Shown here: positions 2,848 through 7,719 of the stretch, piece by piece
How the letters are laid out: each line of letters starts with the position of its first letter
Position numbering within the stretch: the first letter of the stretch is position 1
IMG/VR virus record: IMGVR_UViG_3300027702_000001
Reading direction: 5' to 3' (one strand)
DNA length: 64,000 nucleotides
Source: a virus
Position numbers and translations under genes: made by a program
The notes under the pieces: model-generated
Seen by the model: the letters and a program-made list of their open reading frames with translations, nothing else
What the model was told of the DNA's origin: nothing
Database searches by the model: none

Positions 2848-3288
2848 CTACTCAATATTATATACCTTTCTCTTGTGACTGTCAGGTACAATTTTATTAA
2901 GTTCTATGGTCAAAAGACCATCTTTGTAATCGACGCTGCCAAGTTTTACATCATCAGAGAGTGTGAATGTCCTTGCAAAGGTACGTTTCGCTACACCTTT
3001 GTGTAGGTATCCTCTGTGGTCATCGTTCTTCTCTTTGACTGTCCTGATTGATAGGACGTTAGTTTCTGTTGCGACCTCGAACTCATCCTTTCTGAATCCT
3101 GCTAGTGCTACTTCGATCTTCCATTTAGTTTCTGACTCTTTGATCAGGTTGTATGGAGGGTAGGATTTTGTCTCGTGATCTGCTAGTGCTCTTGACTCTA
3201 GTCTGTGAAAGATATTGTCGAGTCCGACTGAGTATGACCTAGATGCCTGTAAGATTTTATCTAGATCACTTGATGTGAATTGATTCAT
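2848..3288 (-). CDS. hsp20: Small heat-shock protein (alpha-crystallin/Hsp20 family)
   Basis: Motifs YPPYNLIK, IEVALAGF, YLHKGVAKRTFARTFTLSD and DGLLTIEL. The ATG at 3288 has an AAGGAG SD 8 nt upstream, so it is preferred over the track's 3339 GTG. Confidence 0.95.
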   Translation of the reverse strand: MNQFTSSDLDKILQASRSYSVGLDNIFHRLESRALADHETKSYPPYNLIKESETKWKIEVALAGFRKDEFEVATETNVLSIRTVKEKNDDHRGYLHKGVAKRTFARTFTLSDDVKLGSVDYKDGLLTIELNKIVPDSHKRKVYNIE

Positions 3289-3342
3289 TTGTACTGCTCC
3301 TTTAAAGCGAGAGTTTGGTGTTGTCCCCGAAGGCGACACAAT

Positions 3343-3350: not shown

Positions 3351-3410
3351 GTCATAGCAATGGATCACAGGTACGGTTAAAACGGTATCATATGTACAGT
3401 TTTCTCGACG

Positions 3411-3417
3411 CTAAATA
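3411..3417 (+). promoter_or_regulatory. Late-promoter-like CTAAATA upstream of the plus-strand cassette
   Basis: CTAAATA lies about 30 nt before the ATG at 3449. The same variant precedes gp18 (33824-33830) and the prohead-core gene (28625-28631). Confidence 0.6.
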
Positions 3418-3448
3418 GGCTAGATGAATTAATTACCTATTTAAAAAG

Positions 3449-3949
3449 ATGAAAAGAGCAGCGATGCTTTTCGTAATGACTTTGATGACGGCACCTGCAT
3501 ATGCCGATGTTACACATAAACTATCTTCTTCAGTGCAACTCACAGTTGATGCAGCGGCAACCAATGTTCAACGTGTTGGGTCAACTTATAGTATTAGTGG
3601 AAACAATGTGACCACACAATACACACCTCAAGGTGGAAGTGCTACATCATCTATTGGTAGTCTTACAGTCTCATCAGGCGTTGGAGCGATTCCAACGTTG
3701 TCAGCGACCCAAGCGACTGCAGGGGAAAGTTTCAGCTTTACTCAGTCATTCTATCAAGGGGACGCTTTAGGTGGTGCTGCACCGACTGTTGGTGAAGTAC
3801 ATAACTTCAGTAACCAGACATCGACTGCTGCTGGATCTGCTGGATCTCTTGCTGGTACTGTGGATTCCAGTTCAACCACTGCGGTAACTGCTGGTGGAGC
3901 GGGTACAAGTGCTGTGGGTCAATTTGTCAGCGAAATCACCATCCGATAA
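3449..3949 (+). CDS. Exported S/T/G/A-rich protein A, 166 aa
   Basis: Sec signal peptide MKRAAMLFVMTLMTAPAYA|D. The mature part is nearly uncharged and beta-strand-like. Confidence 0.85.
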   Translation: MKRAAMLFVMTLMTAPAYADVTHKLSSSVQLTVDAAATNVQRVGSTYSISGNNVTTQYTPQGGSATSSIGSLTVSSGVGAIPTLSATQATAGESFSFTQSFYQGDALGGAAPTVGEVHNFSNQTSTAAGSAGSLAGTVDSSSTTAVTAGGAGTSAVGQFVSEITIR

Positions 3950-4384
3950 ATGAAAAGAATAGTTGCTACATTGGCACTGTTATCTTTCGCTGGAACTCCA
4001 GTGATAGCAGTGCCTGTAGTGCCTAATTTCACTCAAGGATCGATGACGTCTCACACTGAGACTACTTCTAAGGTGACTGAGACAATAAATTCTATGGACT
4101 ATGCTACTGGTTGGGTTTACTCAGTAAGTGGTACAAATGTAAAACACGATGGTTCATCTATGACACCAGGTGTCAGTGAACAATCTCAAACTATTGATGG
4201 TGTGACTTCAAAATGGACAGGATTAAACGTAAATCAAAAACCAAACTGGACCCAAAATCAAGTGGGCAATGCATTCCAGTTCACAGAAACTTATTCTGGA
4301 CCAGGACTCCAGAATCAAACAATTATTCAGAGGGTAACAGAGGTAACAAGCGTCACAGACACAACCTCAATCTTCCAACAATAG
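3950..4384 (+). CDS. Exported T/S/Q-rich protein B, 144 aa
   Basis: Signal peptide MKRIVATLALLSFAGTPVIA|VPVVPNF. The ATG directly follows the stop of gene A. Confidence 0.85.
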   Translation: MKRIVATLALLSFAGTPVIAVPVVPNFTQGSMTSHTETTSKVTETINSMDYATGWVYSVSGTNVKHDGSSMTPGVSEQSQTIDGVTSKWTGLNVNQKPNWTQNQVGNAFQFTETYSGPGLQNQTIIQRVTEVTSVTDTTSIFQQ

Positions 4385-5274
4385 GAGCACTTACCTTTGC
4401 ACTACTTGCACCACAGATAGCACACGCATCTGATATTGGTGGTGTGTCTGCTACTGCATCTCCAATCGCGAATAGTTCAGGCTCAGTGACCAATCAGGCA
4501 ATTCAGGTTTTACAAGGTCCATATATTACTAATACTTATGGGGGTGGTATTCAATGTCAAGGTAGTACACTTAACATCACACCATTTGTCACTGGTAGTG
4601 CATCTGGACAGAAACCTTGGGAAGATGAATGGTGGGATAATGTATATGATATGCGTGATCAAGAAGGTGCTACTGATGTAAATGGTGCTGTTACAGGAGA
4701 TGGAGTGCCCGATAATCCAGGAAATATTTTATATAAAGTTCCTGTAAGAACAGGACAGAAGGATACATATAACCTATCTCTTGGTGTAAGTGCTACGTGG
4801 TCTATTCCACTTGATAAGAAAGCACAAAACGATTGTAAGAGAGCAGCAGAAACACAGAATGATATGCAGAGACAACTGATTGCTAACAAGCGATTAGATT
4901 TTGAGATCGCGAGATTAAAAAATTGTGGTGAATTGATTCAGAAGGGAATCACCTTCCACCCCAAGTCACCTTATTATGCAATATGTGCCGACGTTATGGT
5001 GAACAACGTGTCATATATCAAACCACACGTACATTCAGTTGAACAAAAATCTACCTCTTCTTCATCTTCCTCAGTTCGCGAAGTGCCCGTGTCCTCATCC
5101 GCTGATGATCTCGGCGGTCCCTTTGAGATTGGAGACGTGGAGTCTTTCCAAGAGCAATCGAAATCTTCGTTATCGTCTTCTTCACAACAGGTTTCACCAC
5201 TTTCAAAAGAAGATCAACAATCGGTTTTGCGAGCAGTGCAGAGGTGGCAGCGACAGCAGCAATCGAACCAGTAG
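4213..5274 (+). CDS. Exported protein C with an amphipathic beta-hairpin and long helix (candidate outer-membrane protein); start uncertain
   Basis: Signal-like segment KRHRHNLNLPTIGALTFALLAPQIAHA|S. Strictly alternating strand YNLSLGVSATWSIPL. Four Cys in the mature part. The only canonical start is the ATG at 4213, inside gene B. Confidence 0.8.
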   Translation: MDRIKRKSKTKLDPKSSGQCIPVHRNLFWTRTPESNNYSEGNRGNKRHRHNLNLPTIGALTFALLAPQIAHASDIGGVSATASPIANSSGSVTNQAIQVLQGPYITNTYGGGIQCQGSTLNITPFVTGSASGQKPWEDEWWDNVYDMRDQEGATDVNGAVTGDGVPDNPGNILYKVPVRTGQKDTYNLSLGVSATWSIPLDKKAQNDCKRAAETQNDMQRQLIANKRLDFEIARLKNCGELIQKGITFHPKSPYYAICADVMVNNVSYIKPHVHSVEQKSTSSSSSSVREVPVSSSADDLGGPFEIGDVESFQEQSKSSLSSSSQQVSPLSKEDQQSVLRAVQRWQRQQQSNQ

Positions 5275-5821
5275 TAACTATTAGTCCTGCATTAGGAATG
5301 TTCTCTGTTATCTGCTGAGTCACAGTCAAAGGTTCAGTAACCTCAATACATTCTTTACCGACAAGTTCGTACGCAACTATCTTCTTATTACCCTGTAGGA
5401 TCTTTCCTATGGGGTTTTTTAATTCTTGTGTCCTAGTAGGACATTCTGTACTAGGGATGTCTGGTACCTTTGTCTCTGGTACATTCAGTTCTGGTTGATC
5501 ATTCTCAAACTTAGGTGGCACTACAGGAGGTGCCTCAAACTTTAGATCATCCTTGTTATAGTCCATCGCACTATAGGATGGTACACCTGCATCACAATAT
5601 ATCCTTGCTCCACTATCATCGTCAGCAACTAAGTTACTATTCTTACCATCATCAGATGGATGTGCTTCTACACACCCAGGCATATCAACAATAGGTACTC
5701 CCACCTGTGTAGTTGCAGGTGCATAGATTGGGATTGCTTGAGGTACACTATTGATCCAGTCGTAATTCTGAATCTCAGGTATCTCCAGTTCCCTCACTCC
5801 GATCTCTGGAATCTCTGTCAT
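5051..5821 (-). CDS. Membrane protein, about 256 aa: Pro/acidic N-domain with 4 Cys, C-terminal hydrophobic segment and basic tail
   Basis: Long ORF with LIVTTGSIAAVAATSALLAKPIVDLLLKVV followed by an R/K-rich tail. ATG 5821 is preferred to GTG 5857. Confidence 0.8.
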   Translation of the reverse strand: MTEIPEIGVRELEIPEIQNYDWINSVPQAIPIYAPATTQVGVPIVDMPGCVEAHPSDDGKNSNLVADDDSGARIYCDAGVPSYSAMDYNKDDLKFEAPPVVPPKFENDQPELNVPETKVPDIPSTECPTRTQELKNPIGKILQGNKKIVAYELVGKECIEVTEPLTVTQQITENIPNAGLIVTTGSIAAVAATSALLAKPIVDLLLKVVKPVVKKTITKISIALGKTPRLQSQRDRRDHQRMRTRALRELRKMKKR

Positions 5822-6035
5822 AATCTGAACTAATGGAAATAGACCAACCGTCTTCACCGAAGACTCCTTCTTCGATTACTCTAGGTAAGTTACGTTCTTT
5901 ATCTCTTTTATCTAGTGCTTTGTGATACTCATCGATCTCTGAGTCGAGTTCGAGATTAAATTTTAGCAGTCTCAACCACATCAAAAGTTTCTCAAGGTAA
6001 TACTTAATTAACTTTTTGAGGAAGGGACCTATCAT
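5775..6035 (-). CDS. Hypothetical protein, up to 86 aa
   Basis: ORF with an ATGA overlap to the upstream gene; the true start may be a later Met. Confidence 0.65.
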   Translation of the reverse strand: MIGPFLKKLIKYYLEKLLMWLRLLKFNLELDSEIDEYHKALDKRDKERNLPRVIEEGVFGEDGWSISISSDYDRDSRDRSEGTGDT

Positions 6036-6586
6036 TCAGTCATCTCCTCTTCGCAGTCATTCAGACTGAGAGCAATCTCTCCACCAATGTCTGCACCTTT
6101 GTTACCACCAAATAGAGCAACACCACCTGCGAGGATTGGACCAACAAACGGTATGCCTGATAAGGCAGGAGCAGCAGCGGCACCCATACTAGCGCCTACT
6201 ATTGCACCGCTTTGTTCTCCACCACCTTCCGCCTTGATACATTCTAGTTTCTTGGCAGTTAACTTTCCCACTCCGTCAGCGGAATTACCTCCCAGATGAA
6301 GAGATCCATCCATAGTGTATTGATTTGACTTTCTGATATTAGTTTTACCACCAATACCAAAGAATCCATTCTTCTTGTCAACGTATGTATCTTTACTCAT
6401 CACCTTTGGATCATTACCTTTGTAACTAATCCGATAACCATCTTCTGATACATATGCATCATAAGAACTATAGGGTCCTACTGGAGGATTTAATGTTGGA
6501 AGTGTTTGTTTGTTTGCAATCAGACCGATCATTCCGATGTGTGCTACACCGAATAATACACCTGCACTAACAGCGAACCATTTCAT
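6032..6586 (-). CDS. Membrane protein, 184 aa, with an N-terminal TM/signal and a C-terminal glycine-zipper hairpin flanked by Cys
   Basis: N-terminus MKWFAVSAGVLFGVAHIGMIGLIA; GxxxG repeats in GAIVGASMGAAAAPALSGIPFVGPILAGGVALFGGNKGADIGG. Confidence 0.85.
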   Translation of the reverse strand: MKWFAVSAGVLFGVAHIGMIGLIANKQTLPTLNPPVGPYSSYDAYVSEDGYRISYKGNDPKVMSKDTYVDKKNGFFGIGGKTNIRKSNQYTMDGSLHLGGNSADGVGKLTAKKLECIKAEGGGEQSGAIVGASMGAAAAPALSGIPFVGPILAGGVALFGGNKGADIGGEIALSLNDCEEEMTE

Positions 6587-6825
6587 TACATTCCTGGGAT
6601 AGATGGTTTAATTGGGGGCATCGCAGGACCACTAACATCAGGAATCATATCGTCCATCATATCAGGAACGATTCCACCTACTGCTTCGACAACCAAATTG
6701 GTTAGTCTTTCTCTTGCCTGTTCTGCAACCTTGTCTCTGTTGGCGTAACCATAAACTAAAGCGCCAGTAACTACACCAGCGAACACAAAGTTAACTACAA
6801 CGAGTCCGTTAATAATTTTTTGCAT
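6586..6825 (-). CDS. Bitopic membrane protein, 79 aa
   Basis: TM segment IINGLVVVNFVFAGVVTGALVYGYA, then a short amphipathic helix and a Pro-rich tail; TAATG coupling to the next gene. Confidence 0.8.
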   Translation of the reverse strand: MQKIINGLVVVNFVFAGVVTGALVYGYANRDKVAEQARERLTNLVVEAVGGIVPDMMDDMIPDVSGPAMPPIKPSIPGM

Positions 6826-6827
6826 AA

Positions 6828-7274
6828 TTACATCTCATACTTTTTAGGATCAGTTTCGGTAGTTATTTTCAAAGGTGCTTGTTCGACACGAATGACTTGT
6901 GCTGGTGCAGTTTGTGATGCTGCAGCAATCAGTCTTTCCATATCTGCCTTTGTTATCCCATTGCCACCACCGTTAGCAGCACCATTACCATTGTTCTTTT
7001 TGGCGGTTTGGACCCCGAAAGTCGCTAAAACCCCAGTGAAGACGCTGGCTATGAAAGTTGGATCGAGATCCTGTTCGGGAAAGTTGAGTGCCTTAGGCAG
7101 GTCAACGTACGCTAAAGTGAGGATACCACCAGACCAAACAAGAATACCAAGTCTCACGAAAGTAGATAGAATCGCGAGTTGTTCTTCCTTATCTTCTGAT
7201 GCCTCCTTTAGGCGACCAAAAAAACCTTTTGGTTTCTCTGGTTGTTTTTTCTTTTCTTCTTCTGCCATAGTCAC
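6828..7274 (-). CDS. Two-TM membrane protein, 148 aa
   Basis: Hydrophobic segments LAILSTFVRLGILVWSGGILTLAYV and TFIASVFTGVLATFGV, with a charged N-terminus. Confidence 0.85.
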   Translation of the reverse strand: MTMAEEEKKKQPEKPKGFFGRLKEASEDKEEQLAILSTFVRLGILVWSGGILTLAYVDLPKALNFPEQDLDPTFIASVFTGVLATFGVQTAKKNNGNGAANGGGNGITKADMERLIAAASQTAPAQVIRVEQAPLKITTETDPKKYEM

Positions 7275-7296: not shown

Positions 7297-7719
7297 CTAC
7301 TCTGCGACCTGACGTTTCTTACCGATATTATATTTAGACTCTAAAATCCAGTCACCCTTGTCCTTGTAAGAGATAACCTTGATCTGATTCAATGGTGCAA
7401 GTTCACCAAGTTCTTCATCAACAACATCTACAAGTCCCCAGTCGGACAGTAGTTTAGTAATTCTGTTACGACGTTCTACATCGTTAGAAGTTAGGTTCGC
7501 GTGCTTTCCGTCCAACGCAAACAACTCTTTAAAGTGTACGATATAATACTTGCCCTTCTTATGAAGAATATGACAACTCTGAAATAATTTCTTTTCCTTT
7601 CTCGATGCTACACCGATTCTGGTAAGCGTCTCTCTAACTTTCAGAAAATCATCTGGTTGTTTAAGACTAACTTCGACCATAATATCGGGTGACCAAGAAA
7701 TCTCGATCTCACCTGCCAT
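7297..7719 (-). CDS. regA: Translational repressor RegA
   Basis: DDFLKVRETLTRIGVASRKEKKLFQSCHILHK..YYIVHFKELFALDGK; follows gp62 as in T4. Confidence 0.97.
   Translation of the reverse strand: MAGEIEISWSPDIMVEVSLKQPDDFLKVRETLTRIGVASRKEKKLFQSCHILHKKGKYYIVHFKELFALDGKHANLTSNDVERRNRITKLLSDWGLVDVVDEELGELAPLNQIKVISYKDKGDWILESKYNIGKKRQVAE

Follow-up and report, generated by a model that had tools for sequence, protein, structure and literature searches.

The 64,000-nucleotide stretch of viral DNA IMGVR_UViG_3300027702_000001 from IMG/VR (referred to here as the window, and analysed at its full length) contains a gene, designated C, whose product is recognised from its sequence matches as a member of the Gp165 family, an exported, uncharacterised and very common family of proteins that is limited to cyanophages. 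The reading that we favour, with a rough probability of 0.45, is that C is an exported, disulfide-bonded protein that matches no known fold and acts on the cell envelope, and that it does so late in infection together with protein B (and A) and a group of small membrane proteins. According to this proposal, C would be exported by the Sec pathway and cleaved by signal peptidase, would be oxidised to two disulfides in the periplasm, and would associate with itself, or bind to B or A, by means of its long helix and of the face of its sheet that is made up of uncharged Ser/Thr/Asn residues. At a late stage of infection it would then serve as that arm of a cyanophage envelope cassette which works in the periplasm or the outer membrane, most probably in lysis or egress, at the stage that follows the holin. 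Few genes of unknown function are as widespread in marine cyanophages as Gp165 and its partners, and the set is found in three unrelated phage lineages. To our knowledge, it is not known how cyanophages breach the envelope of Prochlorococcus and Synechococcus, a step that governs how the most abundant phototrophs of the sea release their carbon and nutrients, and neither a spanin nor a cassette-linked endolysin is annotated in the records examined. A conserved exported protein, predicted to be disulfide-bonded and linked to a holin-like gene, is a concrete and testable candidate for this step.

The Gp165 family and the start of gene C inside gene B

By its matches, the region of the window in which C is located is DNA of a T4-like cyanomyovirus; the DNA and protein searches carried out with positions 3400-5300 gave matches to Synechococcus and Prochlorococcus phages only. 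The open reading frame (ORF) of C translates as given in the initial annotation, with cysteines at residues 115, 208, 238 and 258, and its product matches the whole length of the phrog_848 profile (E 1e-126, residues 5-304 of 353 covered), which places it in the Gp165 family. It belongs to no Pfam family and has no Pfam match at E<=1. When protein C was searched in phage records, 436 matches were obtained, all of them from cyanophages, and its relatives in public metagenomes account for more than 7,600 sequence clusters; the nearest clusters in Atlas and BFVD are named Gp165, and the searches of both gave Gp165 relatives only. A relationship of C to A or B was also considered and rejected, the alignments made by hhalign being limited to the signal peptides. 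No named function for C, A, B or the neighbouring genes m1-m5 was provided by NCBIfam, Pfam or PHROGs (PADLOC not included), and no study of this family was found in the literature under gp165, DUF6322, cyanophage spanin/holin/lysis cassette or regA/hsp20.

The pattern of conservation places the start of C at an ATG inside gene B, in the -1 frame of B, because this ATG is kept through both synonymous and non-synonymous changes of the codon preceding it and because the open -1 frame begins just upstream of it. The ATG at 4213 is the sole in-frame start of C, and it is made up of the last base of a B codon joined to the TG of a conserved Trp codon of B, i.e. xxA + TG(G). In a sample of 68 distinct loci from IMG/VR plus the window, the B codon before this Trp is TCA, ACA, AAA, CAA or AGA, so that the amino acid varies whereas the third base is A in 68/68 loci; elsewhere in B, only 44-50% of the TCN and ACN codons have A at this position. 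The -1 frame is open from the ATG to the stop codon of B in all 68 of these loci, as against about 10% of trials in which synonymous codons were resampled, and an equally long stretch of B just upstream, which served as a control, is open in none of the 68 and contains a mean of 4.4 stops. The nearest stop upstream of the ATG in the frame of C is 5-35 codons away. The same -1 layout of B and C is present in the T7-like podovirus NATL1A-7 as well as in MED4-117. A -1 ribosomal frameshift from B into C is not needed to account for C, ordinary initiation at the internal ATG being simpler, and no slippery site of the form X XXY YYZ is visible near the end of B; on the same grounds as for the frameshift, a non-canonical start near the signal peptide is also not needed.

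The conserved overlap of 172 nucleotides, which is out of frame, shows that current annotations of the B and C genes are often wrong or missing, many database entries either starting C elsewhere or omitting it. In NATL1A-7 (L002), an unannotated B homologue of the DUF6322 type with a signal peptide is found at 3654-4025, wholly inside the annotated 'gp165' ORF but in another frame, and the first 113 residues of the annotated gp165 are an out-of-frame read-through of B. In the complete genome record of S-PRM1 (L001), a homologue of C that is 61% identical by tblastn is present at about 4001-4846, where it is unannotated, and the record shows a gap at this place between the B homologue and the convergent gene.

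Export and architecture of the mature protein

The leader of C has the appearance of a Sec signal peptide whose n-region is unusually long, and cleavage of this leader is predicted. Across the homologues the basic leader has a median of 50 residues and a net charge of about +7, and next to it is a short stretch free of charges (median 14 residues), which ends in A/S-x-A/S just before the conserved mature N-terminus. The features of a Sec signal, viz. a basic n-region, a short hydrophobic h-region and small residues at -3 and -1, are present, sites of the AxA/AxS type at this place being found in about 120 homologues. Because of the signal peptide and the four conserved cysteines, mature C should be located in the periplasm or beyond it. 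The mature N-terminus carries the most conserved motif of the family (Table 1), which the podovirus relative keeps as NPVAAATGNVTNQAVQ; the motif is predicted by AlphaFold2 to be disordered in the monomer, mature residues 1-22 having a predicted local distance difference test score (pLDDT) below 50.

All four cysteines are kept in 66 of the 79 aligned homologues, and most of the others are fragments. The arrangement of strand, loop, strand, helix and cysteines is, on the strength of the alignments, far beyond chance, because the overall pattern is kept in homologues that are as low as 28-32% identical; residue conservation is given below for a family alignment of 63 sequences, down to 32% identity. 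AlphaFold2 was run on the mature protein (pLDDT 74.6, predicted template modelling score (pTM) 0.44) and on core residues 97-280 (pLDDT 82.0, pTM 0.49), and both runs agree on the elements, viz. two short strands (106-109 and 113-116), two long ones (beta3 at 119-132 and beta6 at 185-197) and the helix at 202-243. The initial annotation had described two strands followed by a long helix, and these are present in the models; however, beta3 alternates over residues 120-126 only, with a bulge at the invariant Pro124 and at residue 125 (Phe125), which is always aromatic. The strict alternation that had been reported for the second strand is fully confirmed, as beta6, TYNLSLGVSATWSIPL, alternates perfectly over residues 185-200 across the family alignment. 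In this strand the hydrophobic fraction is 0.73-0.97 at positions 186, 188, 190, 192 and 196 and 0.00 at the S/N/G/T positions in between, position 194 is Ala or hydrophobic, and Gly191 and Pro199 are conserved in 100% and 95% of the sequences, respectively.

The stretch between these strands, which had been taken for an acidic loop of about 55 residues, is acidic and variable (19-114 residues across the family), but it is not a plain loop, as it forms the tip of the strand pair and contains two further short strands (139-145 and 172-179 in the AlphaFold2 model) and the conserved motif D-G-x-P-D-N-P-G. Calcium binding by this tip is plausible because of this motif and because the podovirus relative has DIDDDG in its place. 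In the long helix, residues L204, C208, A211/A212, I216 and L222/L223 form a stripe that is suited to the hydrophobic face of the sheet, and in the monomer model the first part of the helix may lie across this face, as is hinted at by the weak LptE-like alignments described below, which span both the sheet and the helix. The other face of the sheet is a conserved and wholly uncharged ladder of S/T/N/G residues. Both this face and the disordered N-terminal motif look like surfaces that are ordered by a partner or by another copy of C, and the monomer is perhaps not the whole story, because the uncharged sheet face is conserved and the most conserved segment of the protein is predicted to be disordered. 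In the segment following the helix, C258 is conserved in 98% of the sequences, D260 in 95% and H272/H274 in 95%, and Cys258, Asp260 and Pro-His272-x-His274 could form a metal site; no hydrolase family or fold was matched by the segment with Cys258, Asp260 and His272-x-His274. The Ser-rich tail of C, which lies outside the PHROG profile and differs in length among homologues, may be a lineage-specific read-on; here the 3' ends of C and m1 overlap by 224 nucleotides (5051-5274).

A separate observation concerns the metagenomic homologue P0258, which resembles C from the basic leader to the point where beta6 begins, and which from there on has a C-terminal sorting domain of type IX secretion (Por_Secre_tail, 44.7 bits). 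This sequence is probably an assembly chimera, or possibly a real recombinant.

Comparison with TolC and other known systems

In the initial annotation protein C was read as resembling TolC and other outer membrane factor (OMF) proteins. What stands of this reading is a resemblance in the strand-Pro-helix junction, since the amphipathic strand of C has small-x-Pro-hydrophobic at its end and continues directly as a long, polar, Ala/Gln-rich helix. As a sequence motif, 'G-x-S-x-x-x-S-I-P-L + helix' does resemble the place in OMF proteins where strand passes into helix, but the likeness is local and below threshold. None of the 79 family members passes the cut-off (22 bits) of the Pfam family OEP (PF02321), which normally occurs in two copies. 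One divergent member, P0266 (33% identical), reaches 20.5 bits on OEP in a single stretch, residues 79-127, which corresponds to beta6 together with the I-P turn and the beginning of the helix, and this match is absent in the other 78. However, neither kinship with TolC nor a TolC-like geometry is seen by sequence, profile or fold. The family profile gave no matches at E<=10 against all Protein Data Bank (PDB) sequences, the hhalign comparison with E. coli TolC, made with no profile-profile comparison with a diverse OMF alignment, gave a probability of 0.26%, and in a phmmer search of TolC against all 276 collected proteins the best E was 0.21. The search of contigs for TolC relatives gave only enterobacterial TolC of 82-100% identity, which is too uniform for a better OMF profile.

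The comparisons of structure also do not favour the OMF proteins, as TolC is at noise level in Foldseek: the TolC/OMF chains 1ek9, 2xmn, 2wmz and 2vdd were matched at E 1.5-3.0, with template modelling scores of 0.08-0.16 and root-mean-square deviations (rmsd) of 7.7-15.5 A, by monomer models of pTM 0.44-0.49. Equally weak matches beside TolC in this list are those to the Ib, CDTb, PA and lysenin pores, phage collar proteins, CRP and DnaK. In a second look with VIA-align the TolC chains were aligned but none is among the rows with Z>=2, and the wide VIA fold searches gave single long helices only (Z<=5.1). The duplication that characterises OMF proteins, viz. two helix-strand-strand-helix repeats with 4 strands and 4 long helices, is not found in the AlphaFold2 models of C, in which a single long helix follows the strands, none precedes them and an internal repeat is lacking; C differs from these proteins in lacking tandem repeats, in having one helix per strand pair, in that the N-terminal side of its hairpin is a strand and a Cys rather than a helix, and in having four conserved cysteines and a structured acidic tip. 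Homology to TolC is rejected, as Pfam, the PDB profile search, hhalign, phmmer, Foldseek and VIA-align all gave no significant match. C is not a member of the OMF family and resembles the TolC strand-to-helix junction as a local sequence motif only; among solved structures, no relative of C was detected by sequence and no fold match was convincing.

Of the other systems compared, the stems of beta-barrel pores (aerolysin/lysenin, anthrax PA, Ib and CDTb) are similar to C in that its long strands alternate hydrophobic residues with Ser/Thr/Asn, and from these strands a barrel would be formed only as a homo-oligomer. However, the matches of C to these proteins are not significant, C lacks the cap or receptor domain of those families, its beta3 is hydrophobic over only about 7 residues, and the base of its hairpin is probably held in place by a disulfide, instead of being refolded when it inserts. 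LptE is the sole recurring match that takes in both the sheet and the helix of C, and it was obtained from at least 6 species at Z 2.0-3.5 over 45-62 residues (rmsd 3.4-5.6 A), which is noise level; it differs from C in that C has no lipobox and one long helix versus two short ones, and the two show no sequence similarity.

The spanins (lambda Rz/Rz1 and T7 gp18.5/18.7) are likewise envelope-targeted proteins made from overlapping genes in different frames, and C shares with them a long helix, predicted to be periplasmic, and conserved cysteines, as well as its location near a holin-like gene, which in the T7-like relative is between the tail-fibre and terminase genes. In this case also there are differences, as C starts inside the upstream gene in the -1 frame and is not an embedded +1 lipoprotein gene. 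An o-spanin is not indicated by A, B or C, none of which has a Cys in or just after its hydrophobic N-terminal segment. Compared with an i-spanin, C has the 42-residue helix, but its hydrophobic segment is short and ends in AxA, half of its mature core is beta, and this hydrophobic segment looks like a cleavable signal peptide rather than a membrane anchor. No spanin homology of C was found, the PHROG matches all being of unknown function.

The conserved gene set and the possible role of C

The three genes on the + strand in this part of the window are A, B and C, and the N-terminus of the A product reads as a signal peptide with the end AYA, followed by D. In three groups of cyanophages, the T4-like, the T7-like and the MED4-117-like, B and C are co-inherited with m5 and further small membrane proteins. 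Because m5 encodes a small protein with two transmembrane (TM) segments and charged ends, this DUF6450 protein looks like a class II holin; in the three lineages it has 79-148 residues, and its gene always adjoins the B-C pair or the partners of this pair. The m5 product is 55% identical (E 6e-28) to that of the gene just upstream of B-C in podovirus NATL1A-7 (L002 3352-3657), and it has a homologue in MED4-117 (E 7e-13), where homologues of m1 (E 3e-18) and m4 (E 9e-14) are also found; the match of m1 in NATL1A-7 is weak (E 0.009). A homologue of B is located directly upstream of C in both of these phages, and MED4-117 also has a homologue of A. In NATL1A-7 the order is tail fibre, a small ORF, the m1-like gene, the m5 homologue, B, C, small ORFs and the small terminase subunit, and in MED4-117 an m5-like gene is followed by A, B and C, which converge, as they do in the window, on genes similar to m1 and m4. 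In T7 the holin gene follows the tail-fibre gene, and the spanin genes are just beyond, after the small-terminase gene.

Several points weigh against the favoured reading of C as an envelope-acting protein that functions in lysis or egress. The lysis role is suggested only by gene position, protein size and membrane topology, and the probability was put no higher because the functional step depends on these; the cleavage, the disulfides and the oligomerisation of C are predicted. Family searches gave no known function for any gene of the cassette, no muralytic domain was found in the cassette, and a lipoprotein signal like that of an o-spanin is absent from all of its genes. Both models have a low pTM, which leaves the arrangement of helix and sheet uncertain, and the late timing is suggested by one motif of 7 nucleotides that is not enriched in the window. 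The channel proposed in the initial annotation represents an alternative, which we regard as improbable. In this alternative, 6-12 copies of mature C oligomerise, the beta3/beta6 hairpins forming an outer-membrane barrel and the helices a periplasmic stalk, to give a pore or disruptor with an exposed and possibly calcium-binding tip. The strict alternation of beta6, with aromatics 10 residues apart (Y186 and W196) and 7 alternating hydrophobic positions (186-198), is consistent with a barrel of this kind, as are the uncharged S/T/N/G ladder on the other face, which is similar to that in the lumen of beta-pore stems, and the tip insert, which with its length and DxDxDG-like motifs is like an exposed loop. 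The sub-threshold OEP match of one member at the strand-Pro-helix junction and the occurrence of TolC together with the Ib, CDTb, PA and lysenin pores among the weak matches by Foldseek (E 1-3) point in the same direction, and the low pTM together with a helix that matches isolated helices only suggests a subunit of a larger assembly. However, neither OMF proteins nor pore formers were matched significantly by sequence, profile or fold, the hydrophobic part of beta3 (120-126) is short for an outer-membrane span and has an invariant aromatic on its 'lumen' face, a C-terminal aromatic beta-signal is absent, and one helix per hairpin does not permit an alpha-barrel built from helical hairpins as in TolC. 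The recurring LptE-like alignments, in taking in both sheet and helix, fit a helix that is packed on the sheet; burial of the two strands in a soluble globular fold had been named at the outset as speaking against a channel, and these weak matches lean that way, although at a pTM of 0.49 they are not decisive. A more specific proposal, to which we give a similarly low probability, is that C is the outer-membrane pore or breach component of a cyanophage-specific system for lysis or egress, in which many exported copies, assembled through their helices, would insert the disulfide-clamped amphipathic hairpins into the outer membrane of the cyanobacterium, acting downstream of the holin-like DUF6450 protein and replacing spanins. 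If this is true, C would be a new class of phage outer-membrane disruptor that is convergent on the design of TolC and pore toxins.

Other alternatives assign to C a role that is not in lysis or that is enzymatic. It is unlikely, in our view, that C together with A and B modifies or masks an envelope component (the phage receptor, lipopolysaccharide (LPS) or a porin), thereby blocking superinfection or preventing the adsorption of progeny to debris. All three proteins are exported and limited to cyanophages, the N-terminal motif and the S/T/N face are conserved as a binding surface would be, the tip varies in length as would a host-facing part, and LptE, to which C shows its weak resemblance, binds LPS inside LptD. 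However, the LptE similarity is at noise level, the set is associated with a holin-like gene located where T7 has its lysis genes, and it is conserved across three phage lineages and is near-core, whereas exclusion genes are usually lineage-specific and variable. We consider it quite improbable that A and B, both rich in Ser/Thr/Gly/Asn/Gln, form a polymer in the periplasm or at the surface for which C is the anchor or nucleator, its uncharged polar sheet face being stacked against theirs, according to a logic like that of curli and CsgB. A and B are beta-rich, have very few charged residues and are exported and co-inherited with C, whose sheet has the conserved S/T/N/G ladder, and the B/C overlap would permit coupled expression; against this, neither repeats nor motifs of the amyloid type were seen in these two proteins, C is unrelated to either of them, the podovirus has no recognisable A, and there is no candidate for a channel or usher besides C. 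Very improbable is the proposal that C is an exported enzyme, e.g. a metal-dependent cell-wall hydrolase of new fold using Asp260 and His272-x-His274, and hence the missing endolysin of the cassette. Endolysins with signal peptides exist in other phages, no endolysin is recognised in the cassette, and D260, H272 and H274 are 95% conserved; but C matches no hydrolase family or fold, the segment after its helix has only about 40 residues, and the spacing is unlike the HxxxD...HxH of LAS/M23 enzymes, the first His (249) being 61% conserved and 11 residues from D260.

Table 1. Positions of gene C, of features within it and of neighbouring features in the window
Feature	Position	Strand	Remarks
Gene C	4213..5274	+	Gp165-family protein, phrog_848/1755; 353 aa precursor
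C start codon and basic leader within B	4213..4384	+	-1 frame of B, 172-nt overlap
Predicted signal-peptide h-region and AxA (AHA) cleavage site, residues 55-72	4375..4428	+	sequence rule, homologues
Most conserved family motif GGVSATA-P-ANSSGSVTNQAIQVLQG, mature N-terminus	4438..4518	+	consensus
Cys115 codon TGT, invariant	4555..4557	+	alignment
Strand beta3, residues 119-132, invariant Pro124	4567..4608	+	AlphaFold2, alignment
Variable acidic tip, residues 133-184	4609..4764	+	two short strands and D-G-x-P-D-N-P-G motif
Strand beta6, residues 185-200, strictly alternating, ends S-I-P-L	4765..4812	+	AlphaFold2, alignment
42-residue helix, residues 202-243, with Cys208 and Cys238	4816..4941	+	AlphaFold2 pLDDT 92-97
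C-terminal segment, Cys258, Asp260, P-H-x-H (272-274)	4942..5052	+	pLDDT 78-95
Cys258 codon TGT	4984-4986	+	Cys208 and Cys238 lie between Cys115 and Cys258
Ser-rich variable tail, residues 280-353	5053..5274	+	antisense to last 74 codons of convergent m1
Gene A	3449..3949	+	exported S/T/G-rich protein, phrog_564; distant paralogue of B
Gene B	3950..4384	+	exported DUF6322 protein, PF19847, phrog_650; Pfam E 2.5e-43
CTAAATA, T4-late-promoter-like	3411..3417	+	32 nt upstream of gene A
m1	5051..5857	-	Pro-rich, C-terminal TM segment and basic tail, phrog_570
m4	6586..6825	-	79 aa, one N-terminal TM segment, phrog_568
m5	6828..7274	-	two-TM, holin-sized, charged ends; DUF6450, phrog_2714
Hsp20 gene	2848-3339	-	neighbour
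RegA translational repressor gene	7297-7719	-	neighbour

The CTAAATA sequence before gene A is only a hint of a late-promoter signal. The window contains 12 copies of it versus 9.8 expected, which is not above chance, and since 11 of these are on the gene-bearing - strand and 1 is on the + strand, their strand bias follows the orientation of the genes. Lastly, a terminator-like hairpin of 11 pairs followed by a T-run is found at 5390-5415 on the + strand, 116 nucleotides past the stop codon of C and inside the coding region of m1.

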